Source of the DNA: Acidobacteriota bacterium
GTDB taxonomy: Bacteria; Acidobacteriota; Blastocatellia; RBC074
Assembly (NCBI GenBank): GCA_037439425.1
Contig: JBBIWA010000023.1
Coordinates: forward strand, 251-64,250
Length of the DNA: 64,000 bases
Direction: 5' to 3'
Positions 1 to 60,806 of the stretch are shown one piece after another (position 1 is the stretch's first letter; each line of letters starts with the position of its first letter). The notes under the pieces were generated by a model. That model was given only the letters and a program-made list of their open reading frames with translations, was not told the DNA's origin and made no database searches. A program made the translations under genes and the position numbers.

Positions 1-642
1 ACACGCCAACCCACCCTGAACCGTTTGAACCTGTTGCCGCGCCGCCGCATGGACCTCCAACACCTGGTGGGCTAAACACGCCAACCCACCGAGAGCAGGT
101 AAAAGACCAGCGAGAGCGTCTGCTGTCCGTGACCACGAGTTGTGTTCCCATTCATAGCCGTGCTTCTTGTGGAGGTTGAACTGAAGACTCCTCGATTCGA
201 GAGCGTGAAGGCCCGATGAGCTAAGCCGCCTTCTCCCGGATCACTTCTAAGTGCGGTCACATACGAGTTGTGATAGCTCAGCTTACGCCGTGGAGTTTCA
301 CGTTTGTGGCTACGCACGAGAGCGGGATCATTTTGAGATGCCACGGCCTTGCGCCGTGGAGCTTCACGTTTGTGGCCACACACACGGGCAGGATCATTTT
401 GAGAGGCCACGGCCTTGTGCCGTGGAGTTTCACGTTTCTGGCTACGCACGAGAGCGGGATCATTTTGAGAGGCCACGGCCTTGTGCCGTGGAGTTTCACG
501 TTTGTAGCTAGCCTGCAAACTCGACGTTTTTTCCTAAACGCTCTCAATTCGCGGTTACAGTAGCAAGGATCGCGAGACTCCACGGCACAAGGCAGTGGCC
601 TCTTCTATTTACAGCCGCATCCGGCTAAGCGGGAATTGCTGC
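1..642 (-). mobile_element. Partial copy 1 of a ~1.4-kb TIR-bounded non-autonomous composite repeat element. It is inverted relative to copies 2 and 3, lacks the 650-bp internal segment, and runs off the window start.
   Basis: Terminal inverted repeat gctaagcgggaattgctg at 625-642 matches the TIRs of copies 2 and 3. Reverse complement of 130-290 matches 60165-60340. Contains hairpin repeat array 283-515, the central segment, and one A-type repeat. Confidence 0.6.
283..515 (+). repeat. Tandem array of about four 66-bp units. Each carries the hairpin ccacggccttg(c/t)gccgtgg inside a ~40-bp conserved core (B-type: ...gtttcacgtttgtggctac).
   Basis: Direct reading shows period 66-67 bp. Inter-core segments (gcacgagagcgggatcattttgagat and variants) are near-identical to each other and to those of arrays 2 and 3. 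Confidence 0.85.
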
Positions 643-1137
643 GCGATACATCGGACTCGATTTCCACACCGGGAGATTCAGGCGCATGTTACGCTCACTG
701 ATGGCTCTTCGCTCAGGCTGGAACGCTACGGCGACTTTGGCCACTAACGTCAAGCCACTTTGCTCGGAGCCTTCGCCGCCGTGTCGCCGTAGCTATGGAA
801 GCTACTACCAACGCTTTCACCGCCGCTCGATTGCTCAAGCCTTCTGGCGCTTGCCGAATCCTTATCGGCGATCGTCTCGGCCAACTCTTGGCTGGCACGA
901 TCAATGCCAGTGTCAAGGCTGTTCCACCGATAGCCCCACAATGCTAAGTGTCAGTTCGACTGGAGAGGTCGGGCTTGGCCCGATGGCCAAAACATCAATG
1001 ACATTGAACAAGACCTCGCTCGCCGGACCGAAGCCTTGCGCGACGTGGTCACGAGAATCTTCTCTCCTCGCCTTCGAGGCTTTGTTTCTTATGATCATGC
1101 GCCTAGCATAACGCTCGACGCGCGCCTCGCGGGGAGG

Positions 1138-1919
1138 CTAAGCCTCCCCTTTTTTGACTAAACTCGTGGTGTAGACCTTGTGCTTTAGTTTCCGGTGATG
1201 TGTGCCGAGGCTCACTCCATCGAGCTTGCGAGTGAGCTTCACGCCACAGGTAAATTGCCACTTCCGGCGATGAACAAACTTGAGAATCTTGTTCGAAGCC
1301 TGCCAACTGTCGAATTGCACAACCACCGTCCAACCTTCCGACAAGAGCGGCGCAATTCGCTTGAGCATCTCGCGGGCGATGGTGTTCTTGCTGCCGCAGT
1401 CGGACTCGCTCATCCGGCTTGCGCTCCCGATTGATGGCGCGCACCGTGCGTTTGCGCAGGTACAACTGAAAATTGAACGTGGTGGCGATCTCGCTGACTC
1501 GCATCGTGCAGACAACATAGCCACAAGCCATTGATGTAACGCGGATGTTTCGGCGCGCTATTGGTGTGATCGTGATGAATGTCAACGAGCGCCAGCCGTC
1601 AGGTATCGCGATGCTTCTGGCCGATCGAGTCGTCAATGTTGATGTAGATTTCTCTGGCCTGACAACTCTTTTGACTTCCCTCGATGGCGAAGGAGATTGA
1701 AGCCTCAAGGAGTTCCGCACGGACTCTTTGAGCATTCCAGGGGCCGATCCGCCGCAAAGTCATCCCAATTGGAAGGGTCGGTTGTCTCGACAGACTGGCA
1801 TTGTAAAGCCGCCAGAGTATGTTCGCTCTCGCCGCACCAGCAAAGCGTCGCAAAGGTTGCGTAAATGCTGGCGTTGCGGGACTGACAGGAAGCCGATCAG
1901 CGGGTTGAGAAAGGCGCAT
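1138..1919 (-). pseudogene. Frameshifted DDE transposase remnant (IS4/IS701-like). N-part with the IDDS..K motif is in ORF 1599..1919; C-part with the DSW..S...F motif is in ORF 1138..1524.
   Basis: Motifs IYINIDDSIGQKH and VQFDSWQASNKILKFVHRRKWQFTCGVKLTRK resemble DDE_Tnp_1-type transposases. The gene is split across two frames. Confidence 0.4.
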
Positions 1920-1961
1920 AATTGCGGCGAATTGTATATAATCTCGCTAAGCAGAGGGCGT

Positions 1962-2219
1962 TCATCCTGTTTGGAACAATGTAAGGCGGCTGAATGATGG
2001 GCCGATGCGGTCACCTTTGGTAAAGTAGATGGCGTTCGGCGCAGTCCGGTCGGTATATTGCGCCACGCGACGCGAAAGCCCGGTCAAAACCGCGCCCACC
2101 ATTACGACCACCGCTGTCCCGATGATCACCCCGAGCAGCGTCAGCGCCGAGCGTAGTTTGTGAGACCAGATCGAGTCGGCCACGAGCTGGATGATTTCAC
2201 GCTGAAGTTGCCGTCGCAT
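1962..2219 (-). pseudogene. 85-aa N-terminal fragment of a second FtsX/MacB-type ABC permease, truncated at the IS remnant.
   Basis: MRRQLQREIIQLVADSIWSHKLRSALTLLGVIIGTAVVV is a typical MacB-like N-terminus and TM1. The ORF ends after 85 aa, next to the transposase remnant. Confidence 0.5.
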
Positions 2220-2225
2220 ATGAAC

Positions 2226-3569
2226 TCACTCGGCGCGCAAAGCCTCAATTGGATTGAGCCGCGCCGCGCGGCGCGCCGGAAAGACTCCAAAGACAATCCC
2301 GGTCAGCGCCGAGACCAGAATCGCCGCCGCCGCGGCCCACAAAGGCAGCGTGATCGGCAACCCACTGGGCCGTGCGGCGGCCCAGACAACCAGGCCGGCG
2401 CACAACAAACCGATCAGACCTCCTGACAGAGTCAGTAGAGTCGCCTCCACCAGAAACTGCGCCAGCACGTCGCGCCGCCTCACACCAACAGCCATACGCA
2501 CACCGATTTCTCGAGTGCGTTCGGTGACTGAAGCCAGCATCATATTCATCACCACCACGCCGCCCACCACCAACGCGATGGCCGTCAGCGGATAGATCAC
2601 CAGTCCAACCAGTGTGGTCAGCCGACCGGCGAACGCCTCAACGCTTTTGGCCGTGACGACGCTGAAATCATCATCCGCACCGTAGTCCAGCCGATGGCGC
2701 AGACGGAGCGCGAATCGCATACCCTCTTCCACCTCCAGGCGCGTCAGCGATGACTCCGGTCGCGCGCGTCCCAGAATCGCCAGCGAACGTGAACGTTCAC
2801 CAAAGACCTTGGTGAAGTTCCCTAACGGAATTTGCAAAAAGGCGTCCTGCGATTGCCCAAAGTTCGAGCCGCGCGCCGCTGCCACGCCAACCACTTCATA
2901 AGGCAACGCGCCAATGAAGATCCAATCGCTAATCGGGTCTTGCCATGGGAAAAGCAGATCGGCCACATCCGCGCCGATAATGGCCACCGGACGGCGATAA
3001 GCGTCATCAGTCGCGGTCAACTCGCGCCCACGCTCGATCTCGATATTCGAGAGAAAAGAGATATTGGAGGTGACGCCCTGCACGACAATTCCATTGAGCG
3101 ATTGATTTCCCCGCCTGACCGAGAGCGCCGCGTCACCTTGCGCGCCGATTTCGATGGTTTCGCCCAACCGGTCGCGCAGCCAGCGAACATCCTCAAGCGT
3201 CAGGTCCGGTCGCCGCGAACGCGCAATCACCCAGGCCCGCGCATCCCCGATGAAATCCTGGAAATTGGCCTTCTCAACGCGCACCACATCGGGCGCGAGC
3301 GCCCTTGTCTCTTGAGTGATGAATGCTTGCCCCCCTTCAAGCAAAGCCGCCACCAGAACGATCACGGTCATTCCTACCACGATTCCAATCACCGTCAACC
3401 CTGACCACAATCGGTTAGAAAGAATCGAGCCGATCGCCGCGCGCAAGGCCTCGTTCCATCGAGAGAGCGCGCCAAGCTCCGGCGTGACGAATCTCCCATC
3501 TCGATGGACAGCCTCAACGCTGACGCTTTCAGATAGCGGCAACGCCACTTTGTTGGCCGATTCACTCAC
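2226..3569 (-). CDS. ABC transporter permease, FtsX/MacB family (MacB periplasmic domain plus FtsX 4-TM C-terminus).
   Basis: 447 aa. N-terminal TM, large periplasmic domain, C-terminal FtsX-like TM bundle ending ...NPIEALRAE. Confidence 0.8.
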   Translation of the reverse strand: MSESANKVALPLSESVSVEAVHRDGRFVTPELGALSRWNEALRAAIGSILSNRLWSGLTVIGIVVGMTVIVLVAALLEGGQAFITQETRALAPDVVRVEKANFQDFIGDARAWVIARSRRPDLTLEDVRWLRDRLGETIEIGAQGDAALSVRRGNQSLNGIVVQGVTSNISFLSNIEIERGRELTATDDAYRRPVAIIGADVADLLFPWQDPISDWIFIGALPYEVVGVAAARGSNFGQSQDAFLQIPLGNFTKVFGERSRSLAILGRARPESSLTRLEVEEGMRFALRLRHRLDYGADDDFSVVTAKSVEAFAGRLTTLVGLVIYPLTAIALVVGGVVVMNMMLASVTERTREIGVRMAVGVRRRDVLAQFLVEATLLTLSGGLIGLLCAGLVVWAAARPSGLPITLPLWAAAAAILVSALTGIVFGVFPARRAARLNPIEALRAE

Positions 3570-4024
3570 AGCTCACCAAATTGTTCGGCTACCACGCTGT
3601 GGCGGTAATCGAACATCCTCTCCAATCTTTTCCGTATGAACCAGCCAGCGATCATCTCGCCCAGAACCCCCATCGGTGCGGCGTACTCAACCTCGTCGGT
3701 CATCAGCGTCCCGCCGCGAGCGGTCGGCTCGAAGCGATGCCGATGGCGCCAGTAAGCGAAAGGCCCTTGTCGCTGAACATCAGTGAAAAGATGGGGCGGC
3801 TCGTATTCCGTGTGCTCGGCCACCCAGAGCCGCCAGAATGGTCCGAGATAAACTTTGAAAACGACGCGCGTCCCAACCTGCAAACCATTTGCGCGCTCCA
3901 AAACCTCGACACGCTCCCAGGGCGGCGCCAATCGCTCGACCGCGCCCGGCTGCTCGTGCCAGGCAAAGACCACATCGGGCGGCGCGGCTATCTCCGTTTG
4001 TTTGATGAATCGTCGCGTCTTCAT
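3566..4024 (-). CDS. SRPBCC (START/Bet v1-like; polyketide cyclase/dehydrase-like) family protein.
   Basis: 152 aa. Motifs WRHRHRFEP and MFDYRH, paralogous to ORF 7216..7722. Overlaps the FtsX start by 4 nt. Confidence 0.65.
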   Translation of the reverse strand: MKTRRFIKQTEIAAPPDVVFAWHEQPGAVERLAPPWERVEVLERANGLQVGTRVVFKVYLGPFWRLWVAEHTEYEPPHLFTDVQRQGPFAYWRHRHRFEPTARGGTLMTDEVEYAAPMGVLGEMIAGWFIRKRLERMFDYRHSVVAEQFGEL

Positions 4025-4028
4025 CGGC

Positions 4029-4970
4029 TTAAAATCGCGCTCCGAGTCTGACCAGATGCTGCTCCAGCATCTGGAAGTCTTCGATCAACAGCGCGCGCGT
4101 CTGTCTGATCTTGTTGATCAAGGACTCTTCCTTAGCGCCGCCGATCCATAGTTCGATTCTCGCCGGTAATTCTCGCGCGATCTTTCGCACATCTCTCAGC
4201 CCGGCTTTGGCCCCGTTGGCGCCGATAAATCCCAGGATGACCGCCTGTGGCGCGGCCTTCTGCGCGGCGGTTACAATCTCTTCGGCCGGGAGATTGGCGC
4301 CCAGGTAGACGATGCCAAATCCACCTCCGACCGCCAACATCGCCGAGAGCAGAATGCCGAATTCGTGCTGCTCTCCGCTCGGCGTGGCGAACAACAGTTT
4401 GCTGGTCGGTGCAGTTCGACGATAGAGCGGAATCAGCGATCCCAGCAGGTTCCGCAACAAGGCCGAGGTCATGTGTTCCTGCGCGACGCTCAACTTGCCT
4501 TCGTGCCATGCCTCACCCACCTCCTGCATCAATGGCAGAGCGACCCGATAAACCAGCTCGCGCGGCGTCAACCCTGCAACCAGCAGGGCCAACTCCTTTT
4601 CCGCTTCACCGTAATCCAATCGCTCAATCGCGGCTATCACCGAGCGCGGAGGATGCAAAGGCTGCTCTGGCCATCTCTTCGTCATCGCCTCCACACTCTC
4701 GATCATTGATGATGGCATCGGCGACGGCCCAGCCATCAGCGCCCGCAGCTCTTCGTCATCAAGCGCGGCCACACGGCCAATCGCATGCCCTCTCTCCACC
4801 ACGGCGTTCAGCAGTCGCAGACGCTCCACATCGGCCTCAGTGTAGAGCCGTCCGCGCCTGTCGCGCTGTGGCGTGACGACCTGATAGCGCCGCTCCCAGG
4901 CGCGCAGCGTGTCAACGCTGATCCCGGTCAGTTTGGAAACGGCGCGAATTGGATAGAGCAAGGTCTTCAT
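4029..4970 (-). CDS. carH: MerR-family transcriptional regulator with a C-terminal cobalamin-binding domain (CarH/LitR-type light-responsive repressor).
   Basis: N-terminal MerR HTH (IRAVSKLTGISVDTLRAWERRY). C-terminal B12-binding Rossmann-like domain with the E/DxHxxG signature (GEQHEFG). Confidence 0.75.
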   Translation of the reverse strand: MKTLLYPIRAVSKLTGISVDTLRAWERRYQVVTPQRDRRGRLYTEADVERLRLLNAVVERGHAIGRVAALDDEELRALMAGPSPMPSSMIESVEAMTKRWPEQPLHPPRSVIAAIERLDYGEAEKELALLVAGLTPRELVYRVALPLMQEVGEAWHEGKLSVAQEHMTSALLRNLLGSLIPLYRRTAPTSKLLFATPSGEQHEFGILLSAMLAVGGGFGIVYLGANLPAEEIVTAAQKAAPQAVILGFIGANGAKAGLRDVRKIARELPARIELWIGGAKEESLINKIRQTRALLIEDFQMLEQHLVRLGARF

Positions 4971-4987
4971 CGTGATTCAGCTTTCAT

Positions 4988-6202
4988 TCAGCCGGATTGC
5001 CTGGTCTTGACTAAGCGCGAGACGTCAAATCCCTTGGCCGCCGCCTGCTCGATGATCCTTTGATAAACCGCTTCGTCCATCTGCGGCGTGCGCGAGAGTA
5101 TCCACAGATATTTCCGATCCGGCGAGCCGACGACCGAATAACTGTAATCGGGCGCGAGCGCGATGATCCAGTAATCTCCCCAGACCGTCGGAAGCCATCC
5201 GAGCCACGCGGGCGCGAACCGCACTTTCAGTTTGGAGTTCGGCCTCCTCTCGCCGGCAAGTCTGGCTCTGCCTTCAGCCCTGGCGATCTGGCCGTTTTGT
5301 TGGCGGCATTCATTGACAACTTTCAGTTGACCATCATCGAGTTGCGAATAGGTCGCTGTCACCTCGCCAGCGCATTTCTTCTGAAACTGGTTCGGCAACC
5401 GCGCAACTTCATACCACTTTCCAGAATAACGCGAAAGCTCAACCGAAGCGACGACTTCCAACGCTGGTGGACGATCTCTTTCCGCCACAAGCGGCAGATT
5501 CGGCAGGATAAGAACCAGCGCAAACAATTTTCTCAACACAACTCCTCCGCTCGAAAGACGCTGTTTAGTTGCAGCAGATGACCCATCCGCTTTCGTCAGC
5601 AGGTAACGAAAGGCCGGCGGGCTGGCTTTGATCTCCAGCGGGACGCGCTCGACCACTTCCAATCCGGCATTGCGCAGGGCGAGGACTTTGTCCGGATTGT
5701 TCGACATCAATCGCACCCGACGCGCTCCCAATTGTTTGATGATCTCGGCGCACTGGTTGTATTCGCGCGCGTCAACCGCAAAACCGAGTTTGAGGTTGGC
5801 TTCAATCGTGTCGGCACCCTGATCCTGCAAGGCATAGGCGCGAATCTTGTTGATGATGCCGATTCCGCGCCCCTCTTGCTGCTGATAAACGATGACGCCT
5901 GCGCCTGCGGCTTTGATCATCTGCATGGCGCGTCTCAGTTGCAGCCCACAGTCGCATTTCAATGAATGAAACACATCGCCCGTCAGGCATTGCGAATGAA
6001 TGCGCACGAGAGCAGGCTTGGCCGCGTCAATCTCTCCCTTGATCAACGCCACAAATTCTTCGTCTTCTTCGTCGCTGATGACACTGCGAAATCCGGCGAT
6101 CTTGAACCGCCCAAATTCTGTCGGCAAATCAGCTTCGGCTTCCAACCTCACGGTCGCACTCTCTGTTCTTCGGTCTTGCCCGATATCCAAACGCATAAAC
6201 AC
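4988..6202 (-). CDS. ribA: GTP cyclohydrolase II (RibA) domain read in-frame into a Blc-type bacterial lipocalin domain. A signal-peptide-like segment lies between them.
   Basis: Residues 1-215: [20 protein letters not shown] zinc motif and the ERVPLEI tail of RibA. Residues ~222-404: hydrophobic [18 protein letters not shown], then [11 protein letters not shown]...YLWILSRTP...GFDVSRL, matching Blc lipocalin. Confidence 0.7.
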
Positions 6203-16619: not shown

Positions 16620-16847
16620 CTGCGCGTGAAATCTCTCGGCCCTGACCTGCCGCTGGTAGAGTTTGTGGTAATGGCCTTCGCGCTCCATCAGCTCAGCGTT
16701 AGTTCCCTGCTCAATCAGCCCGCTATTCTTCAAGACCAGGATCAGGCCGAAATTCTCCATCGCGGCGAAGTGGTGAGCGATGACGATTGTGGTCTTGCCA
16801 CGGAGCAAACGTTCGAGTGCGTCGTGAAGAAGCGGCCAGCTTATCAA
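16608..16847 (-). pseudogene. 79-aa C-terminal fragment of an ABC exporter ATPase.
   Basis: LRGKTTIVIAHHFAAMENFGLILVLKNSGLIEQGTNAELMEREGHYHKLYQRQ matches the ABC D-loop/H-loop and tail. The N-terminus is absent and the repeat module abuts it. Confidence 0.6.
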
Positions 16848-17020
16848 TCAGCGGTACCAGAGCCCATCATGAGCAAACAAGCTTCCTCGAATGTCGGCGA
16901 CGGTGTCAGGCTCTTGCTGTTGTCTAAGATATTCCGCCATTGGCGCGCCATCTGACTGAATAAGAGCGTCTCGGTGGCACGTTCAAGGCTTGTGTTTCGG
17001 GTTGGGCGGGAATTCCCGGG
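16845..17020 (+). repeat. Solo copy of the ~170-bp right-end module of the composite repeat element.
   Basis: caatcagcggtacc(a/g)gagccc...gcaaacaagcttcctcgaa...ggtctaagatattccgc...tctgactga... matches 36359-36525 and 60345-60509. Confidence 0.6.
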
Positions 17021-17483
17021 ATTACTTCAGGTCATTTGCTCACGCACATGGACTTTCCAGGAGAGAATGACAAAAGCGATGGAGGAACCGCTTCGCCAGT
17101 AGAGGCATCAGCTCCGGTGTCCGAGGAGCCAGCCGCAGCAGTAGACGAGCTTGCTGGCGCGGCGCCGGAAACGCCAACCACGGAGACGAGGATTGAAGAC
17201 TTGCTCAAACACCTGCGGCGGCGGCGGTTCAAGCAGGAGATCCTGCTTTCGAGCGCCGCCCCAGAGGAGACCACGGCAGCAGCTACCGACTCTCCAACCC
17301 CTACGCTGCAAGAGCCCCCAAACACACTGCGCCAGTAGCCGAGCTGGCGGAAGAATCAACCACAGGGTCAGAGCCGGCCTTAGAAGAGGTCGCGGCTCAG
17401 GCCAGCGCGCAAACGCGGCTGATACTGATAGAAACGAACAGCCGCATCACGCGACATCGGTCGCAGCTCAGGCCAGCGCGCAA

Positions 17484-32121: not shown

Positions 32122-33828
32122 CTAAAACTCATAATCTATCTTGTACTCAATGGCCACTTCAAAGGTGCGCGGCCAGGGGAGATAGATCTTCAAGTCTTTC
32201 AGCCCGGTGAGCTTCACCGACCGTTTGACCTGATTGTAAAAAGCCAGCGTGTAAGTGCGCCCTTGAAAGTGATTGGCGAAGAATTGTTCGATCAAAGAGC
32301 GCATTCGTGCGGCGAGTTCACGGCTAATCTGCGCCTGCATCTCCGCAGTGAGTTCGTCAGTTGCAATCTTCAGCTCTTGGTGCAAATGCCGATTAAGCTC
32401 CGGACGCACAATGTCGTGGTAAAGATAGTCCCCAACGAAACGATGCATCAGGAACTCAAAGTGAGCAGCGTAGGCGCGTGCAGCCCGGTCAGCGCGATCG
32501 TTGAGTTTACTGCGGAAGAAGACTCGCATGTTGGCGTGGGCTATCGCCGTGCCGAGCGTGTTACTCGCCGTATTCCACGCCGCATAGCTGGACAGTCTGT
32601 CAATCAGCCCTTCGCGTTTGAGCGCTTCTACCAGGCGTTCATCCGCTCCGCTGTAATGCGGCGCGGGGAAGGCTACATCAGCCAGCGCCACAGGCTTGAA
32701 GGCTTTAAGATCTGTTATTAATCGTCGGAGAAAATCATTAAACTCTTTCTCGCCAGTCTCTGGGGCATTGACGTAAAGCGTGTAGTCGGCCTCCTCTGCG
32801 CGGTTGACAAGGCGCCCTCCTGCGGCCTTGATTTGGTTCTCCACTGTGAATTGAAGTGGCTGGTCTTCGTAAGGCGCAATTATTTGCTTGCTCTTCTCAG
32901 CGGAGTAGACGACTGCGACCTTGACCCGCCAGCGAAACTTGTCAAGCACGGCGCGACTGACCAGCGTGAGCGAACCTTCATCCGTGCCATTGTAAATTGG
33001 CACGCGCGACTCTAGTCCTACCTCCTTGAGTCGCTCGTGCAAGATTTCTTGATCCTGCCGATGCAATCCGTAGAGGCGGGCATCGTCTTGGAGCAAGATC
33101 AGGTGATTGACTATGCCCGCCCTGACCAGCTCGATCATCGCCAGATTGATCTGCAAATTGCGCCGCCGTGCAGCCAGGTAATCATTAACTACTTTGGGAT
33201 CGAGCTCTTTCTTTAACTGCTCCAACTCGGCAGCAAGTCGTTCATCTCCGCTCTTCGGCACGCGGTCTTCTAGCTCTGCCCAGCGAGCGAGCTGATCGCG
33301 CCAGGGGCGGCTTGCCGCATCAGCAGTCGGAGCTATACGCATAATCACATTGAAGGCGTAAACCGGAACACGCGGATACTTTTGTTTGAACCAGCGGAAG
33401 AATTCCAAATGCTTCTGAGCTGCCTCAAGCGGCGTGCGATGAGTGCGCGAAGCGACCAGGCCGCCGTAAGCCAGCATGTCAACCGCCACGATGAGCGCAT
33501 CCACAATTCCGTAGTCCTGCACGCGCAGCCATTCAATAATGCGCGCTGGATCGCCCGGAGTAGTGAAGCTGCCCAGCGTTTCCGGCGGTGGTATCAGCAC
33601 CCGATGATCAGCTACTCTGCCGATCATCTGCGCAAACTGCGCAACGGCTGGGCGATCGTCTAACGGCACCAGTACTATGTAACCCGCTGAGCCGAGCGGG
33701 CCGGGATGCATCGGTACAGGTTTAAGTTTCGGCGGCTGCTGCGCTTTTCCCGCGCGCAATGTTAGCGCGGATGAAAGTGTCAGCAACAGAGAGAAGCTCA
33801 GCAGAAAGCAAGTCTTCATTGAGGACAT
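32122..33828 (-). CDS. Secreted DUF4127-family protein.
   Basis: Signal peptide, 568 aa. Family assignment is recalled, supported by adjacency to nanE. Confidence 0.45.
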
Positions 33829-34114
33829 GACGTACTACTTACTTGCTGCGCCACCACAAGCGGGCAGGCTACAGGTTAACAGCAAACTTGCGGCCTGTTC
33901 CCCCGCACTGGCTTGAGGTAGTCTTGAGGGCGATACTTTAAGGTCTCTGTCCCAGCAAAGCCAATCTGGGAGGATTTACTGTCTGGCGTCCAATGCACCG
34001 CTCCTCATAAGGAGATATAGCTGATTACGGAGAAGCTTACAGACGGCTGTCTGCGCTATCGCAAATGAATGGCCGCTTGATAGTACTTACTTGAGGCAGA
34101 AGTGAAAAAGAACG

Positions 34115-35160: not shown

Positions 35161-36525
35161 AAGCAGCTTAACAGCAATTCCCGCTTAGCTGGATACGGCT
35201 GTAAATGGTTGAATGAGACAAAAGAGTTTCTGCACTTGAAACGGAAGAGGTTATGAAATAAGCGCGGAAGAGGTAACCAGTAAGGAATTAAACTCCCGCC
35301 CGGAGACCACTCAAGAGTTTAACTTTTGAAGCCTTTCGAGATTTGCTCACCCTGAAGTCTTCAAGCAACTCCTTTGAGAGTCGTGAGCGCGAGACCGCTT
35401 TCGCAGTGGCTGGGGTGGCACTTCAGCACATTCTTCTTCCTTCAACACCCGAGCTTGCTGGCGGTTCAGCGAGGGATGAAGAACAAAGCTGGGCGAGCGG
35501 GAGCTGGAACGAGTCTTTGAGGTATAGGAGATAATGTCTGATACGCATATGCGAGAGAGCTTGGACATGGTGCCGACCGAGTCTTTGCGGCAGCTCTGGC
35601 CTGAGGTCTTAGAGCGGACGGCTGCGAGTCGGATGGAGTGTGCAGTTTGTGACCGGGTGGGGAGAAGTATTAACTAGTCGCTTTCGAGGGAAGTGAATAT
35701 TTTCCTTCGAGGAAGATCGACTCTGCTGGGAGTTTGAGGCGCAAGGGCAAGGACGGCGAGATGCATTATTCACACGTAGTGGTCGCACGTGACAATAGGC
35801 GCGCGCCTGCAGCCCGGACACTTTGCCGCAAGAGGCCACGGCCTTGCGCCGTGGAGTCTCACGATCTTCGCTACTGAACAGATCGCTGCAGCTCGAAGAG
35901 GCCACGGCCTTGCGCCGTGGAGTCTCACGATCCTGGCTACCAAATCCGCAATCCACAATTCGCAATCCGAAATTCAAAGAGGAGTCTCACGATCCTGGCT
36001 ACTGTAACCGCGGATTAAGAGCGTTTAGGAAAAGACGTTGATGTTAGCCAGAAACGTGAAACTCCACGGCGCAAGGCCGTGGCCTCTCAAAATGATCCTG
36101 CCCCTGTGTGTAGCCAGAAACGTGAAACTCCACGGCACAAGGCCGTGGCCTCTCAAAATGCTCCCGCTCTCGTGCGTAGCCACAACCGTGAAACTCCACG
36201 GCGCAAGGAGACTGCTTAAAAAGTCCCATGAGGCCCCAATATTTGGGACTTTAGATCAGGTTAAGACACGATATACAGTATCGCTGGGAGGCTTTTTAAG
36301 CAGTCTCGCAAGGCCGTGGCATCTCAAGGAGAAAGATTGTGACGAAGAGCCCGCGTTTCAATCAGCGGTACCGGAGCCCACTTGCGGGCAAACAAGCTTC
36401 CTCGAAGCTGGGGCGGCGGCCGTCCACTCTGCCGCTATGGTCTAAGATATTCCGCAATCGGTGCGACGTCTGACTCAGTGAGGCACACTCGGGGTCCCTC
36501 GTTTCCCGCTTGAGCGGGAATTGCT
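35161..36525 (+). mobile_element. Copy 2 (full, 1365 bp) of the composite repeat element. Order: ~18-bp TIRs, a 650-bp conserved non-coding segment, A-type hairpin repeats, a central segment, an inverted B-type hairpin array, a ~170-bp end module. Flanked by a perfect 9-bp direct repeat gcagcttaa.
   Basis: TIR cagcaattcccgcttagc at 35172-35189 pairs with cagcaattcccgctcaagc (rc of 36499-36517). gcagcttaa at 35163-35171 and 36518-36526. 35215-35830 is ~90% identical to 59185-59776. Confidence 0.7.
35832..36208 (+). repeat. Hairpin-repeat arrays of copy 2: about 2.5 A-type units forward (gaggccacggccttgcgccgtggagtctcacgatcctggctac), then about 3 B-type units in inverse orientation (gtagccagaaacgtgaaactccacggcgcaaggccgtggcctc).
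   Basis: Direct reading. Same core hairpin ccacggc-N5-gccgtgg as array 1. Confidence 0.85.
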
Positions 36526-36625
36526 GGCAGCTTAAAGCGCAACTTGACAGGCGCTGGCCTCGATCCCTATACTTGCCGCTTTGCAAGCAAAGGAGATTTG
36601 TCTGTTAGTTATCAAGGAGAACTTC

Positions 36626-37085: not shown

Positions 37086-38632
37086 CGATGAAAATATTAT
37101 GGATGTGTCCCACCTGTCTAACCGCTAGAAGCGGCCAGATTTGGCGGGTTATGGATGCTCCAGCCCAGATAGGTGACGGCTTGGTAAATCTTGATCGCGT
37201 TGCGCCGTCCTTTCTCTGAACGGAAACCATCGTGGTTACGTTCCAGACGGCGCAACGTTCGCATCCCTGTCTCGGCCAGCGAATTTTGCTGCACGCCTGG
37301 CACTCTAAAAAACGTCGTCATGTTTTTGAAATTGTCTTCGAGAAATGTGATTGATTTCCTGTAACCATCATTCTCGTGATGCGCCGCATACAGCTTCAAT
37401 TCGGCCAGCTTCTCTTGCGCTTCCGCCTCAGTGGTCAGGCCTTCAAAGATGGCCCACACTTTGTGCAGGAATCTGCGCAGGAATGACATCTCCGATTGTG
37501 TCTGAAGAACCTCTTGCATGGTCTCTTTCTCTTTTGCTGTGAGGTTCTTGTCGGATTTGAAGAAGAGGTAACGGTTCTTCCATAGTTCGGCGGCCAGACG
37601 TTTGAGTTTTTCCGCGTACCATTTGGTCTCGGCAGCTTCACCACGTTCTTTGAGATCACGGCGATGCGCGCGGAATTCATCCCAGACCTTGCGCCAGATA
37701 TTCTGCAGGATGTGAAAGTAGTCGAGCTGAATATGGGCCTCCGGATAGACCGCTTTAATCGCGTTGGCATAAGCTTGCCAATGATCGATGTAAAAGGCTT
37801 TCAGCTCCAGTCCGAACCGTTTCATCCGCTCCAGGAAGGGCTCGACGTGTTCTTCCGTGACGCTTCTCGACTTCCTGCGTGGCGATGATCCGCCCGTGTT
37901 CATCCTTGAGCACAAGCAGACACTGAGTTGCGCCGAGTGCAAACAGTTCGTCAAAGTGTCCTTGCGTGATCGGCTTTTCTTTGTGCAGCAATTTGATCAT
38001 CTCCTCTTCGGAGGGCAACGAGTCGCCGACTTCATCAACCCAACGGTCGATGGCCGATTTGGAAACCGTGACTTGAAATAACACTTGCATCAACCAACTG
38101 GCTTGGCGCGAGCCGAGTCCGGCGATGATGCATAAAAAGACGCCAAGCCGCATCACCACGTCAGAGACTTTGCGCTGCGTCGAGAGAGCCCCGCCACCTT
38201 AGGCGTGAAGTAGACACGCTGGCCTTGCTCATCGATGTAATAGCCGTCGGCGGTCGTGATCCGATAGATGATCAGCCAGGCGAAGCCGGAGAGTTCTTGC
38301 ACATCAAATGTGCGTTCGTTGATCCAACGAATCTCCACGCCGCGTTTGAGCTGGAAGAGTTTGTGATAGTCGCGCTTGCGCGTATCGAACTCAATGATGG
38401 TTTTGTTGTCTTCGGCCTTTCCCTTTGGGCAAAGGTCCTCGTTCTGCTCGAGCACTGCGGTCGTCACCGGCAATTGAATGATCATCGTCTTATGAACTCC
38501 AATGTGATGGTTGTTCGTAAGATCATATGCTGGTTCGAGAAGGTTTTGAATGCGCTCCGCTCGTCTTTCCTCCATTCATTGAAAAAGCAGGCGGTTAGCG
38601 CGATTTTCCGTTAGACGGGTGGGACACACCCA
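37086..38632 (-). mobile_element. ISL3-family insertion sequence (~1.55 kb) with ~28-bp imperfect terminal inverted repeats.
   Basis: Left end aatattatggatgtgtcccacctgtctaacc versus rc of right end taatattgggtgtgtcccacccgtctaacgg. Confidence 0.65.
37118..38575 (-). pseudogene. ISL3-family transposase split over three frames (38575-38153, 38159-37755, 37954-37118).
   Basis: C-part YIDHWQAYANAIKAVYPEAHIQLDYFHI and ...NSLAETGMRTLRRLERNHDGFRS fit the ISL3 DDE domain. Middle part carries an HTH (SKSAIDRWV). Two frameshifts. Confidence 0.6.
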
Positions 38633-49229: not shown

Positions 49230-49761
49230 TCCTGTCCTGATAAAATCTTCCTGCTAGGTGACCCGAGTTCCAACCCGCCTCAGTGTGCCTCAGCACTCTC
49301 TAGCGCGTCAAGCTAATCAGATTCGCTAAAAATTCCTCTGGCTTTTCCAGAGCCAATCTGTTATATTGTTGCACGTGTAAAACAATAAACTAACAGCGGG
49401 ATTAAAACCACCGGGCTCTGATACAGACCTGTCTCAGGACACCACAGTAGGGGGTTAGCTGGAATATCAGGCCCCCAAATTAATTATAGACGGATAGAAC
49501 GCTGATTTGGGAAACAGTTTGATTAGTCAAAAATAATGGCCTCTAAGCCAGCTTTTGAGCAGGTAAATTGCAACCAAATGGCGTAGCTATCGTTCAAGGT
49601 CATGGCTTGGGAAGCTGTCTTGATTAGAGCTTACAAGAGCGAAATTTCAGCAATTAATCGCCACAGAGCCTGTATGCGGGCTAAGTTGCTCCTTTTTGGC
49701 GGGGAGAGCTAGGTAACAACTAAGCAATCAGCGATTTATCGGGACTAAGGGGGGAATACAA

Positions 49762-57335: not shown

Positions 57336-58328
<993 letters not shown>

Positions 58329-58591: not shown

Positions 58592-59080
58592 GTGAGTGAG
58601 GAGAGAAAGCTAACTGGTAAAGAGAAGATTCTGGCTGAACTCCGTGCGCTCGAATACGAGCTGAATGTCGAACTGCCGCGTGTGCTGAGAATGGCCGCTG
58701 CGCTCGGCGATCTCTCGGAGAATGCCGAGTACAAATCAGCGCGCGAACGCCAGGACTTTGTGCGCGCCCGCGTGCGCCAGTTGCAGCAACAACTCGCCAG
58801 GCTGTCAAGTATTGATCTCAGCAAGTTGCCGCGCGATCGCGCTTCTTATGGCTCGACCGTCATCTTGCGCGATGTTGAGCGGGGCACCGAAGTAACCTAT
58901 CGCCTCGTCACTCCTGAAGAAGCAGACCCTGAGCAAGGCCTGATCTCTACCACCTCACCCATCGGCAGGAGTTTGCTCAATAAGGAAGAAGGCGATCGCG
59001 TCAAGGTTCAGGCCCCGTCGGGGGTGCGCACGTTCGAGGTGATTAAACTCACAACCATTCACGGCGATCCTAATGAGTGA
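58592..59080 (+). CDS. greA: Transcription elongation factor GreA.
   Basis: N-terminal coiled-coil with [11 protein letters not shown]-terminal FKBP-like domain. 162 aa, GTG start. Confidence 0.85.
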
Positions 59081-59116
59081 GGAGGGGCTGGCTCACCGCA
59101 GCCACTTCCCTCTGGC

Positions 59117-60518
59117 CACTGGTGGCAGCAATTCCTGCTCAGCCGGATACAGCCGTAAATAGTTGAATGAGACAAAAGAATTTCTGCGCTTGAACCTCTG
59201 AGAGGTCCTGAAGTAAGCGCGTGAGAGGTGAAAAGTATTAAACTCCCGCCCTCAGACCAATCAAGAGTTTAACTTTTGAAGCTTTTCGAGATTTGCTCAC
59301 CCTGAAGTCTTCAAGCGAGTCTTTGAGAGTAGTGAGCGCGAGACCGCTTTCGCAGTGGCTGGGGTGGCACTTCAGCACATTCTTCTTTCAACACCCGAGC
59401 TTGCTGGCGGTTCAGCGAGGGATGAAGAACGAAGCTGGGCGAGCGGGAGCTGGAACAAGTCTTTGAGGTAGAGTAGATAGCGTCCAATACGCAGATGCGA
59501 GGGAGCTTGGACGTGGTACCGACCGGGTCTTTGCGGAGCTCTGGCCTGAGGTCTTAGAGCGGACAGCTGCGAGTCGGATGGAGTGTGCAGTTTGTGACCG
59601 GGTGGGGAGAAGTATTAACTGGTCGCTTTCGAGGGAAGTGAATATTTTCATTCGAGGAAGATCGACTCTGCTGGGAGTTTGAGGCGCAAGGGCAAGGACG
59701 GCGAGATGCATTATTCACACGTAGTGGTCGCGCGCGACAATAGGCGCGCGCCTGCAGCCCGGACACTTTGCCGCAAGAGGCCACGGCCTTGCGCCGTGGA
59801 GTCTCACGATCCTGGCTACCAAATTCGCAATTCGCAATTCGCAATCCGAAATTCAAAGTGGAGTCTCACGATCCTGGCTACTGTAACCGCGGATTAAGAG
59901 CGTTTAGGAAAAAACGTCGATGTTAGCCACAAACGTGAAACTCCACGGCGCAAGGCCGTGGCATCTCAAATGAGCCTGCCCGCCTGTGTAGCCAGAAACG
60001 TGAAACTCCACGGCGCAAGGCCGTGGCCTCTCAAAATGATCCTGCCCGTGTGTGTAGCCACAAACGTGAAACTCCACGGCGCAAGGCCGTGGCATCTCAA
60101 ATGAGCCTGCCCGCCTGTGTAGCCACAAACGTGAAACTCCACGGCGCAAGGTGATCTATCACAATTCGTGGCTGATGGACTTTGAAGTGACCCGAGAGAA
60201 TGCAGCTCAGATCATAGGGCCTTCACGTTCTCGAATCGAGAAGCCTTCTATTCAAAGTCCACAAGAAGCACGGCTATGAATGGAAACACAACTCTTGGTC
60301 ACTTCCCTGCCCCAAGCTCTCAATGGTCTTTTCAATCAGCGTTACCGGAGCCCACTTGCAGGCAAACAAGCTTCCTCGAAGCTCGGCGGCGGTATCAGGC
60401 TGCCGTTATGGTCTACAATATTCCGCGATCAATACGTCATCTGACTCAATGAGGCACCTGCGGCGGCACACTCTGTGCCCCTCGTTTCCCGCTTGAGCAG
60501 GAATTGTTGCTCTCGACC
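59117..60518 (+). mobile_element. Copy 3 of the composite repeat element. Same architecture as copy 2, with no clear target-site duplication.
   Basis: TIR cagcaattcctgctcagc at 59126-59143 versus rc of gcttgagcaggaattgttg at 60491-60509. 59185-59776 is homologous to 35215-35830. Arrays 59777-60150, tail and end module 60150-60509. Confidence 0.65.
59777..60150 (+). repeat. Hairpin-repeat arrays of copy 3: about 1.5 A-type units forward, then 4 B-type units inverted. Inter-core segments tcaaatgagcctgcccgcctgt (twice) and tcaaaatgatcctgcccgtgtgt.
   Basis: Direct reading. Confidence 0.85.
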
Positions 60519-60806
60519 TGGCCAGCTTCATTGAGAACGACCATCACGGTAATATCTTTGTGAACCTCCCTGCCCACATACTTGACAGGTTTTATAGGAC
60601 GCCCCCTTAATTTCGTAATCTGGGTTTGGTTACCCCAAGATTACTCTAAGCGGGGCGTCCTTTCATATTACGTGCTAGAGACTTCAGGAGGGGGAATAGA
60701 AACAGAAACTCCTCCTCTTGCGGCGCTGCCTTAAGTTGCTGCAGCCGGTTGAAGGAACTTCGCTTAGTGTGGAGACACTCCGAGGATATACCCTGCGAAG
60801 GGGAAG

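Follow-up and report, generated by a model that had tools for sequence, protein, structure and literature searches.

Repetitive extragenic palindromic (REP) sequences, the REPINs that they form as inverted pairs, and their REP-associated tyrosine transposases (RAYTs) make up the REPtron systems of Escherichia coli, Pseudomonas, and Stenotrophomonas, which we use here for comparison (Nunvar 2010, PMC2817692; Bertels & Rainey 2011, PMC3116915). REP dimers can be tandemly reiterated together with their flanking DNA, and REPs also occur in Planctomycetes–Verrucomicrobia–Chlamydiae (PVC) bacteria (Di Nocera et al. 2013, PMC3733652). In addition, Quentin et al. (2018, PMC6006769) reported REPtron-like Y1 genes (class 3 TnpA(Y1)) from Acidobacteria and Planctomycetes. 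Here, we discuss three hairpin-bearing repeat arrays in a 64,000-nt stretch of an Acidobacteriota genome (contig JBBIWA010000023.1, positions 251 to 64,250; hereafter, the window). These arrays are very probably REP/REPIN-type repeats that were amplified by unit duplication and that are carried in the window by a miniature inverted-repeat transposable element (MITE) of about 1.36 kb.

A preliminary description of the window had reported hairpin-bearing arrays of a 66-bp tandem unit at three loci. Such arrays do exist, since Tandem Repeats Finder, the hairpin count, and a covariance model of the unit agree on them. The period of 66 bp holds for two arrays (282–510, 3.5 copies, 87% matches; 36045–36208, 2.5 copies), and that of the array at 59924–60151 is 65 bp (3.5 copies, 92% matches). 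The 19-nt hairpin CCACGGCGCAAGGCCGTGG (CCACGGC-GCAAG-GCCGTGG) occurred 12 times in the window at three or fewer mismatches, versus 0.02 times expected from shuffled sequences, and its consensus in the window units is CCACGGC-RCAAG-GCCGTGG. With the covariance model, 12 full units and 3 truncated ones were recovered; they are confined to the three array loci, and the rest of the 64 kb has none. Self-comparison further showed that the three loci share far more than their arrays: 35172–36526 matches 59126–60509, and a shorter inverted version lies at 129–641. We refer to these as copies B, C, and A, respectively.

Each array is preceded by one or two units in the opposite orientation (35828–35944, 59773–59823, and 556–606), with a short centre in between. 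The stretches 35832–36208 and 59777–60150, which had been taken as single arrays, thus each consist of one or more inverted units, a centre of approximately 100 nt, and only then a direct array. In copy B, two inverted REP-type units (here termed beta; 35828–35878 and 35894–35944, minus strand; 58.8 and 60.7 bits in the covariance model, also supported by alignment) are followed by AATYCGC heptamer repeats (35942–35975, plus strand), which lie in a segment that has a 22-bp duplicate of the unit head on either side, and then by the direct array (alpha; 36040–36207, plus strand). The latter comprises units at 36040–36090 and 36106–36156 and a third that is broken in its loop at 36207 and continues from 36308. 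Copy C has a beta unit at 59773–59823 (minus strand, 61.6 bits), a centre of about 100 nt with the same heptamers, and an alpha array at 59919–60151 (plus strand) of three full units and one cut at the loop (…CCACGGCGCAAGG). Within this array, 59924–60020 and 60055–60151 are 99% identical, which marks a 131-bp higher-order duplication of two units. In copy A, the alpha array (282–510, minus strand) holds 3.5 units, the last of which is cut in the loop and leaves a half-hairpin at 281–293, and the beta unit lies at 556–606 (plus strand, 44.3 bits); the whole heptamer-bearing segment is missing. The final unit of every array is broken off inside the hairpin loop. The inverted unit and the first direct unit of copy A (460–610, minus strand) fold as one long REPIN-like hairpin of −43.7 kcal/mol (z = −9.4), and none of 200 shuffled sequences was as stable.

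The segments between the conserved cores (approximately 24–26 nt) are variants of one sequence, as had been stated before: only five of the eight are distinct, and their pairwise identity ranges from 0.67 to 1.00 (median: 0.79) within and between arrays alike. We considered whether the repeats encode protein. The open reading frames (ORFs) that span the arrays (72–518 and 36038–36445) matched no Pfam family, their frames are not conserved between copies, and a period of 65 or 66 bp is no fixed multiple of three; we therefore regard the repeats as non-coding and reject protein-coding repeats. Intrinsic terminators were rejected as well, because the unit hairpins lack T-tails and were not flagged as terminators. 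No credible Rfam match was found in a gathering-threshold scan of the whole window or in an E-value scan of 59000–60700, and a tRNA scan of the window returned no tRNA, so there is no tRNA-linked attachment site.

The carrier element is best seen in copy B (35172–36526, plus strand), which is complete at 1355 bp as judged from the homology break of a relative, the junctions themselves, and full-length homology to copy C. Within it are found the inverted units, the centre and the direct array, together with a nested MITE and a right arm. Terminal inverted repeats (TIRs) of 14–18 bp (CAGCAATTCCCGCT) lie at 35172 and, inverted, at 36526; the left one (CAGCAATTCCCGCTTAGC) spans 35172–35189 on the plus strand and its right partner spans 36509–36526 on the minus strand. 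At three or fewer mismatches, the terminal repeat had four matches in the window versus 0.21 expected, at 624–641 (minus), 35172 (plus), 36509 (minus), and 59126 (plus). The same terminal repeats end copy C, and copy A has one end only. A 9-bp target-site duplication, GCAGCTTAA, flanks copy B (35163–35171 on the left and 36527–36535 on the right), and the junctions read …GCAGCTTAA / CAGCAATTCCCGCT…AGCGGGAATTGCTG / GCAGCTTAA…. A relative with approximately 90% nucleotide identity (L234) carries a single GTAGCCTAA at this empty site and no insert: its homology to the window ends at 35171 and restarts at 36529, leaving a gap of exactly 35172–36528. The homology break and the junction sequences together indicate that copy B is a 1355-bp insertion with TIRs and a 9-bp duplication, which bears out the earlier proposal that the arrays are satellites inside a mobile element. 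With its TIRs, and with the duplication and the empty site at copy B, the outer element agrees with a MITE, except that no autonomous partner was found in the fetched loci or plasmids.

Copies A and C differ from this form. Copy C (59126–60509, plus strand) has no target duplication, and its left edge falls at a synteny break. Copy A (129–641, minus strand; left TIR at 624–641) is a short truncated variant without the right arm. The three copies are mosaics: a 620-bp segment and the heptamer tract are present in B and C and missing in A, and a segment of about 150 bp (60152–60302 on the plus strand; 129–280 in copy A, as the reverse complement) is joined to the loop-cut hairpin in A and C and is missing from B, which has a 100-bp MITE in that loop instead. 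This nested MITE (36208–36307) has perfect 16-bp inverted repeats (GAGACTGCTTAAAAAG), and its 5-bp duplication, GCAAG (36203–36207 and 36308–36312), is the hairpin loop itself. The 150-bp segment, which contains an internal inverted repeat (GGACTTTGAA/TTCAAAGTCC), joins the hairpin at the same loop position into which the MITE inserted. These arrangements suggest an insertion hot spot in the hairpin loop. No further copies of the nested MITE were found in the window or in the fetched loci.

The units belong to a family that extends well beyond the window. When GTDB species genomes were scanned for the 19-nt hairpin, the matches listed included Pyrinomonadaceae/Blastocatellia, Gemmataceae, KSB1, Verrucomicrobiota, Victivallales, and Kiritimatiellia, and the flanking sequence splits the hairpin carriers into two families. 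Family 1, which includes the window, has the consensus (G)TAGC-nnCnA-ACGTGA-nnn-hairpin-CAT(C) over 87 distinct units and ranges across Blastocatellia/Pyrinomonadaceae, Gemmataceae, and soil metagenomes; among the matches listed from the metagenome scan, most were from soil. Its (G)TAG tag, located 15–16 nt upstream of the 7-bp stem, is well kept (T in 66, A in 76, and G in 76 of the 87 units). Profile searches over 229 loci yielded 659 units in 188 clusters, whose polarity is nearly invariant, minus units preceding plus units: the arrangements included '--++' (42 clusters), '-++' (28), and '--+++' (15), and reverse polarity was seen in only 3 of the 188. Same-strand neighbours are spaced by 63–71 bp, with a mode of 67 bp. 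Adjacent inter-core segments are usually near-copies of each other (median identity 0.87, n = 121, versus 0.51 for random pairs), which indicates that arrays throughout the family grow by duplication of whole units. In addition, the stem shows compensatory changes, with the loop-closing CG pair replaced by GC in 27 of 142 sequences and by UA in 4 of 142; this covariation exceeded that of all 500 shuffles and all slid controls, in an alignment that was fitted to the model. A literature search for the hairpin, for the unit family, and for REPtron together with Acidobacteria returned no paper describing the hairpin or the family, and the wider repeat family thus appears to be undescribed.

Several other searches around the family were negative or yielded observations of a different kind. 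Viral contigs gave no match to the unit, a metagenome scan with the window-specific 39-nt unit gave no match, and clustering of the ORFs near units revealed no enriched protein family apart from generic kinases. Family 2, found in the PVC phyla (Verrucomicrobiota, Victivallales, and Kiritimatiellia), has the identical 19-nt hairpin in other flanks (…GAYCTGATTCAC-hairpin-GGGTCT); its loci include L001, L002, L007, L008, L010, L014, L022, L030, L033, L036, L049, L051, L053, L058, and L098, and in the last of these it forms head-to-tail tandem copies of about 40 nt. Clusters in one metagenome-assembled genome (MAG) of Gemmataceae (L003, L011, L012, L021, L038, and L073) are bracketed by an outer inverted repeat, GTTTTGAAGTTGCGC … GCGCAACTTCAAAAC, which suggests that they ride a different carrier element.

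A search for pairs of clusters separated by a gene led to a candidate enzyme. At locus L196, a 281-amino-acid (aa) ORF comes after two minus units and part of a third and is itself followed by a plus unit, and the GTAG heads face the gene. The ORF matches Pfam Y1_Tnp (PF01797, E = 8e-21) in two stretches, and the protein matches an NCBIfam IS200/IS605 transposase model. It has 442 homologues at E ≤ 1e-10, some of which are labelled 'RayT' by JGI and some, from Pyrinomonadaceae or Blastocatellia, IS200/IS605 transposase by NCBI. Most of them lie on contigs of about 1 kb, as would be expected if assemblies break in the flanking repeats. We looked up four homologues (58–65% identity; L236, L237, L238, and L239) that lie on long contigs among housekeeping genes, and found minus units upstream of every one of them and plus units downstream, the latter beginning at or just past the stop codon. 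The arrangement of minus units, gene, and plus units was therefore found in all five loci examined, which are related loci and not part of the window. L238 is the most extreme, with at least 16 units upstream (1316–2452) and at least 33 downstream (3365–5652) of one Y1 gene at a period of 68–70 bp; the arrays are on a 2.18-Mb contig, and gene callers had placed spurious ORFs over them. The stem variants beside the Y1 genes change from locus to locus in a compensatory manner (GGC/GCC, GGG/CCC, GAG/CTC, and GAC/GTC).

The Y1 protein of about 280 aa consists of two IS200-like halves. In alignments of the homologues (proteins P0209–P0328), D-H-x-H is invariant in the C-terminal half, where the Tyr of K-Y-I-E is nearly so, and the N-terminal half has lost the HUH motif and kept an invariant Y-L-x-x-Q; tyrosine-helix motifs are thus retained in both domains and HUH in the C-terminal one only. 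In P0313, Phe replaces the C-terminal Tyr. An AlphaFold model (predicted local distance difference test score, 82.9; predicted template modelling score, 0.82) comprises two beta-alpha-beta-beta-alpha-beta domains, and the best matches in the Protein Data Bank by sequence and fold were the TnpA proteins of IS200, ISDra2, and IS608 (template modelling (TM) score up to 0.83 over the target). IS200/IS605 transposases assemble their active sites in trans across a dimer. By analogy, it is a reasonable inference that the protein of about 280 aa is a fused pseudo-dimer with one complete site.

Other RAYT-like Y1 genes were encountered in an initial hunt that used an E. coli RAYT sequence and the RAYT-like ORFs of four loci as queries. 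We rejected the genes of these four loci (L091, 830–1830; L049, 135–1316; L015, 1724–2700; L199, 796–1140) as partners of the present family, because each is flanked by its own, unrelated family of tandem or inverted repeats. The repeats beside them have periods of 102 bp and 42–46 bp and include the palindrome CAGCAAACTGGAAAGTTTGCTG. Since each of these genes has its own repeats, several REPtron-type systems coexist in these phyla.

Taken together, these observations suggest the following mechanism. The unit, approximately 66 nt in total, consists of a (G)TAGC head, an AACGTGA box, a 7-bp G+C-rich stem, an RCAAG loop, a CAT, and about 24 nt of looser sequence, and the family layout is one of two opposed tandem arrays with facing heads ('-..- +..+'). 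The master form holds between its arrays the gene for the protein with two IS200-like Y1 (HUH) domains, and the clusters without the gene, including those of the window, are predicted to fold as long single-strand hairpins like REPINs. We infer that the Y1 enzyme recognizes folded units in single-stranded DNA and thereby generates and maintains the gene-less clusters, a role like the one proposed for RAYTs with REPINs. Array length shifts by duplication of single units or two-unit blocks, probably through unequal recombination or slippage, and such growth explains why the apparent spacers copy each other. The window clusters are passengers in the TIR element and did not spread one by one. On transposing, the outer element duplicated 9 bp of its target in the manner of DDE-type transposons, and a transposase of that type probably moves it; its copies have since diverged through internal insertions and deletions and have been involved in at least one rearrangement.

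Some of our results weigh against reading the repeats as a REP/REPIN-type system. The units of the window occur only inside the three element copies and are not scattered as in classical REP-rich genomes, and there is no Y1 gene in the 64 kb. Among approximately 190 clusters fetched by DNA pattern, only L196 adjoined the Y1 gene in question, and the other Y1 genes in the pattern-fetched loci carry unrelated repeats. The GTAG head stands off the stem and does not abut it, and the arrays are direct, not alternating as in the bacterial interspersed mosaic elements (BIMEs) of E. coli. The protein is nearer to IS200 transposases than to the RAYT clade, and the match to the E. coli RAYT structure 4ER8 was weak (E = 7e-4, TM score 0.41). 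Finally, the counts of stem covariation derive from an alignment that was model-fitted. We nevertheless consider a REP/REPIN-type origin, with amplification by unit duplication and carriage by the MITE, to be well supported overall. A bolder proposal is that the family and its two-domain, single-chain pseudo-dimer (N-domain without HUH but with the tyrosine helix, and C-domain with both) form an undescribed REPtron class that builds and maintains opposed arrays in a phase of approximately 67 bp across Acidobacteriota and Planctomycetota. We put this forward tentatively and regard it as rather doubtful at present. If it were true, the identical 19-nt stem-loop in the sister family of Verrucomicrobiota, Lentisphaerota, and Kiritimatiellia would imply either unusually constrained recognition of the hairpin by a protein or horizontal spread.

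The arrays have the superficial look of CRISPR arrays, in which acquired spacers between conserved repeats are processed to guide RNAs: a hairpin core of about 40 nt alternates with segments of about 24–26 nt at a regular period, and the period is regular across the family too (63–71 bp). However, the putative spacers copy one another, both in the window and among family-wide neighbours, so that no set of unique spacers was found at either level; units occur in both orientations at every one of the three window loci and within clusters elsewhere; and in related loci the arrays flank a transposase gene, not cas genes. The preliminary description had noted that no cas gene occurs in the window, and PADLOC indeed matched no Cas model among 51 non-overlapping ORFs there. 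Moreover, the three window arrays are copies of one transposed element. The view of that description that the arrays are not CRISPR is thus upheld, and we give a CRISPR or CRISPR-like guide array virtually no credence; on present evidence this reading is already effectively refuted. The window arrays are selfish DNA, not immune memory. What had escaped notice is their membership in a REP/REPIN-type family, the facing inverted units, and the arrays that flank Y1 genes in related genomes.

Three other explanations accept the repeats as something other than immune memory. All window units lie inside element copies, and the short copy A is little beyond a terminal repeat and a unit cluster, as would be expected if the units were functional parts of the outer element, such as internal or subterminal binding sites for its transposase, and belonged to no independent family. 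Conversely, hundreds of unit clusters exist in other genomes, and the terminal repeat was present in 0 of 235 fetched loci; the number of units also differs between the copies (2–3.5), and they are not placed symmetrically about the ends, the distance being 37–660 nt on the left and over 300 nt on the right. This explanation is accordingly very unlikely. A plain minisatellite, that is, a hairpin-bearing 66-bp segment expanded by slippage with no enzyme or family behind it, would account for the near-identical neighbours, the 131-bp higher-order duplication, and the variable copy number among the three element copies, but not for the conservation of the core across many unrelated genomes, where polarity and period are fixed and stems covary, nor for units that flank a Y1 transposase gene in five of five loci. 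We find it barely credible and already contradicted by the family-wide data, although slippage or unequal recombination is likely the mechanism of local expansion within the REP/REPIN-type explanation. It is also conceivable, although improbable, that the hairpins were recruited by the host and are kept by selection, either as RNA elements (3′-end stabilizers, attenuators, or small-RNA precursors) or as DNA sites for pausing or nucleoid proteins. The compensatory changes that keep the stem and the unusual conservation across phyla, which includes the loop and the 5′ box, are in line with recruitment, and roles in mRNA decay and termination are among those documented for classical REPs (PMC3733652). 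Against it, the hairpins have no T-tail and were not flagged as terminators, no Rfam family matches them, close relatives lack clusters at the same loci with no visible consequence, and the head-to-head symmetry and the tight link to the Y1 gene point to recognition at the DNA level. Host recruitment is compatible with, and not exclusive of, the REP/REPIN-type explanation that we prefer.

The genomic context of the window is ordinary. By Pfam, its genes are chromosomal ones, including those for carotenoid synthesis, Hsp70, isocitrate and malate dehydrogenases, greA, and rpsT. The named proteins closest to the malate dehydrogenase (57351–58325) come from Blastocatellia (Acidobacteriota) MAGs (88–90% identity), and 98%-identical proteins occur in sister genomes. 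No unit was found in 74 kb of syntenic DNA from relatives, so the units look as though they were imported with the element in the host lineage. For sister genomes (L229–L231), the alignment with the window begins at 49451 and ends at 59125, precisely where copy C has its left edge; beyond this edge they continue with greA-PASTA-rpe-yfiO, and the window has mbtH. Because the alignment stops at that edge and the gene order then differs, copy C lies at a rearrangement breakpoint. An inversion between copies A and C was considered as the cause and was not confirmed, the partner flank being outside the window. The suggestion that the arrays act as recombination substrates therefore finds indirect support, and at the level of the whole element only, in the missing target duplication of copy C and the synteny breakpoint at its left edge.

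Around copy B, the relative L234 has the same order, Transglut_core2-rpsT-gntR, with a 235-bp spacer between rpsT and gntR. The insertion left intact a strong promoter-like site of rpsT, from whose −35 box it lies 18 bp upstream; this near-consensus sigma-70-like site (36544–36573; TTGACA-18-TATACT, 11 of 12 positions) is conserved in the relative. A second insertion near rpsT, the 1.5-kb stretch 37100–38631 that is missing in L234, contains a truncated ISL3-family transposase ORF (37118–37954; PF01610, E = 1e-17). On the other side, a TonB-dependent-receptor segment of about 4.2 kb between gntR and a DUF4127 gene in L234 (6200–10688, versus 33828–34082 in the window) is missing in the window. 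Near copy A, overlapping frame-shifted ORFs at 1103–2014 (minus strand) resemble a decayed transposase and had no Pfam match at E ≤ 0.01. Neither this debris nor the ISL3 fragment could be linked to the terminal repeats of the element, because both lie outside it and the debris matches no Pfam family. Searches for a partner were likewise negative: the terminal repeat was absent from the fetched loci, a whole-element search of plasmids gave no match, no insertion sequence (IS) with these terminal repeats was found in the fetched loci or plasmids, and the internal ORFs of the element matched no Pfam family and have frames that are not conserved between copies B and C. The right arm, a non-coding sequence of approximately 190 bp, is conserved in copies B (36339–36526) and C (60328–60509), and a solitary degenerate version with a decayed right terminal repeat lies between two genes at 16800–17027 (plus strand); none of the three had an Rfam or tRNA match.

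The feature in the window is itself ordinary selfish DNA. Its analysis removes a false CRISPR lead and accounts for the three similar loci as copies of a single non-autonomous transposon, one that has already contributed to rearranging the chromosome. More broadly, it points to a REP-like system among soil phyla that are abundant yet little studied; its unusual features are a fused two-domain IS200-type enzyme, strict head-to-head polarity, a fixed period of about 67 bp, and conservation of the hairpin across phyla. It would offer a tractable model of the way in which HUH transposases turn into resident 'repeat gardeners'. The breaks that assemblies of these genomes show at unit arrays are explained as well, most of the Y1 homologues being found on such short contigs.

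Compared with known systems, the arrays resemble CRISPR only in that a hairpin-containing conserved core alternates regularly with segments of constant length, and they differ in their non-unique segments, two orientations, transposase association, and lack of cas genes in the window. The outer 1.36-kb element resembles MITEs in its TIRs, 9-bp duplication, several copies, empty site in a relative, and non-coding nature, whereas it is larger than typical and is pieced together internally from other repeats, namely a REP cluster, a heptamer tract, and the nested 100-bp MITE. As for IS200/IS605 insertion sequences and their miniature derivatives (PATEs), the partner protein belongs to the same enzyme family by sequence and fold. 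The IS200/IS605 enzyme recognizes subterminal hairpins in single-stranded DNA, and the present family may be alike in this regard. A conserved tetranucleotide lies approximately 16–19 nt 5′ of the hairpin foot, which is reminiscent of the left-end cleavage site of IS608. However, the ends of IS200/IS605 elements are one hairpin each on the same strand, whereas here the Y1 gene, single-copy among housekeeping genes, has its upstream units on one strand and its downstream units on the other, and both sets have multiplied into long arrays. Class 3 TnpA(Y1) genes occur in the same phyla, are flanked by several high-copy secondary structures, and share the IS200-type Y motif (Y----Q), but their products are of about 178 aa with the HuH motif NHVH and a CnGA foot, in contrast to about 280 aa, two domains, PDH[VA]H, and a TAGC head here.

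The closest likeness is to the REPtrons. Shared traits are a short palindrome rich in G+C, accompanied by a conserved GTAG-type head (although at a distance), inverted pairs foldable as one long hairpin, clusters reiterated in tandem with flanking DNA, and a single-copy Y1 gene flanked by inverted repeats, with the repeats extragenic and near housekeeping genes; related MAGs carry many contigs with clusters. Inverted pairs able to form a long single-strand hairpin, as in REPINs, are seen both in the −43.7 kcal/mol fold of copy A and in the '-+' junctions, or units in both orientations, of 151 of the 188 clusters. Unlike in REPtrons, the head is 15–16 nt from the stem, there is an extra AACGTGA box, a conserved unit of about 43 nt sits in a period of about 67 bp, the protein has two Y1 domains and resembles IS200 TnpA more closely than it does the E. 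coli RAYT, and the window units travel inside another transposon. Unlike BIMEs, the arrays are direct with one orientation switch and do not alternate regularly. Because of this tag–stem spacing, the direct arrays of about 67-bp period with a single switch, and the two-domain IS200-like protein, we do not file the family as a canonical RAYT/BIME system.

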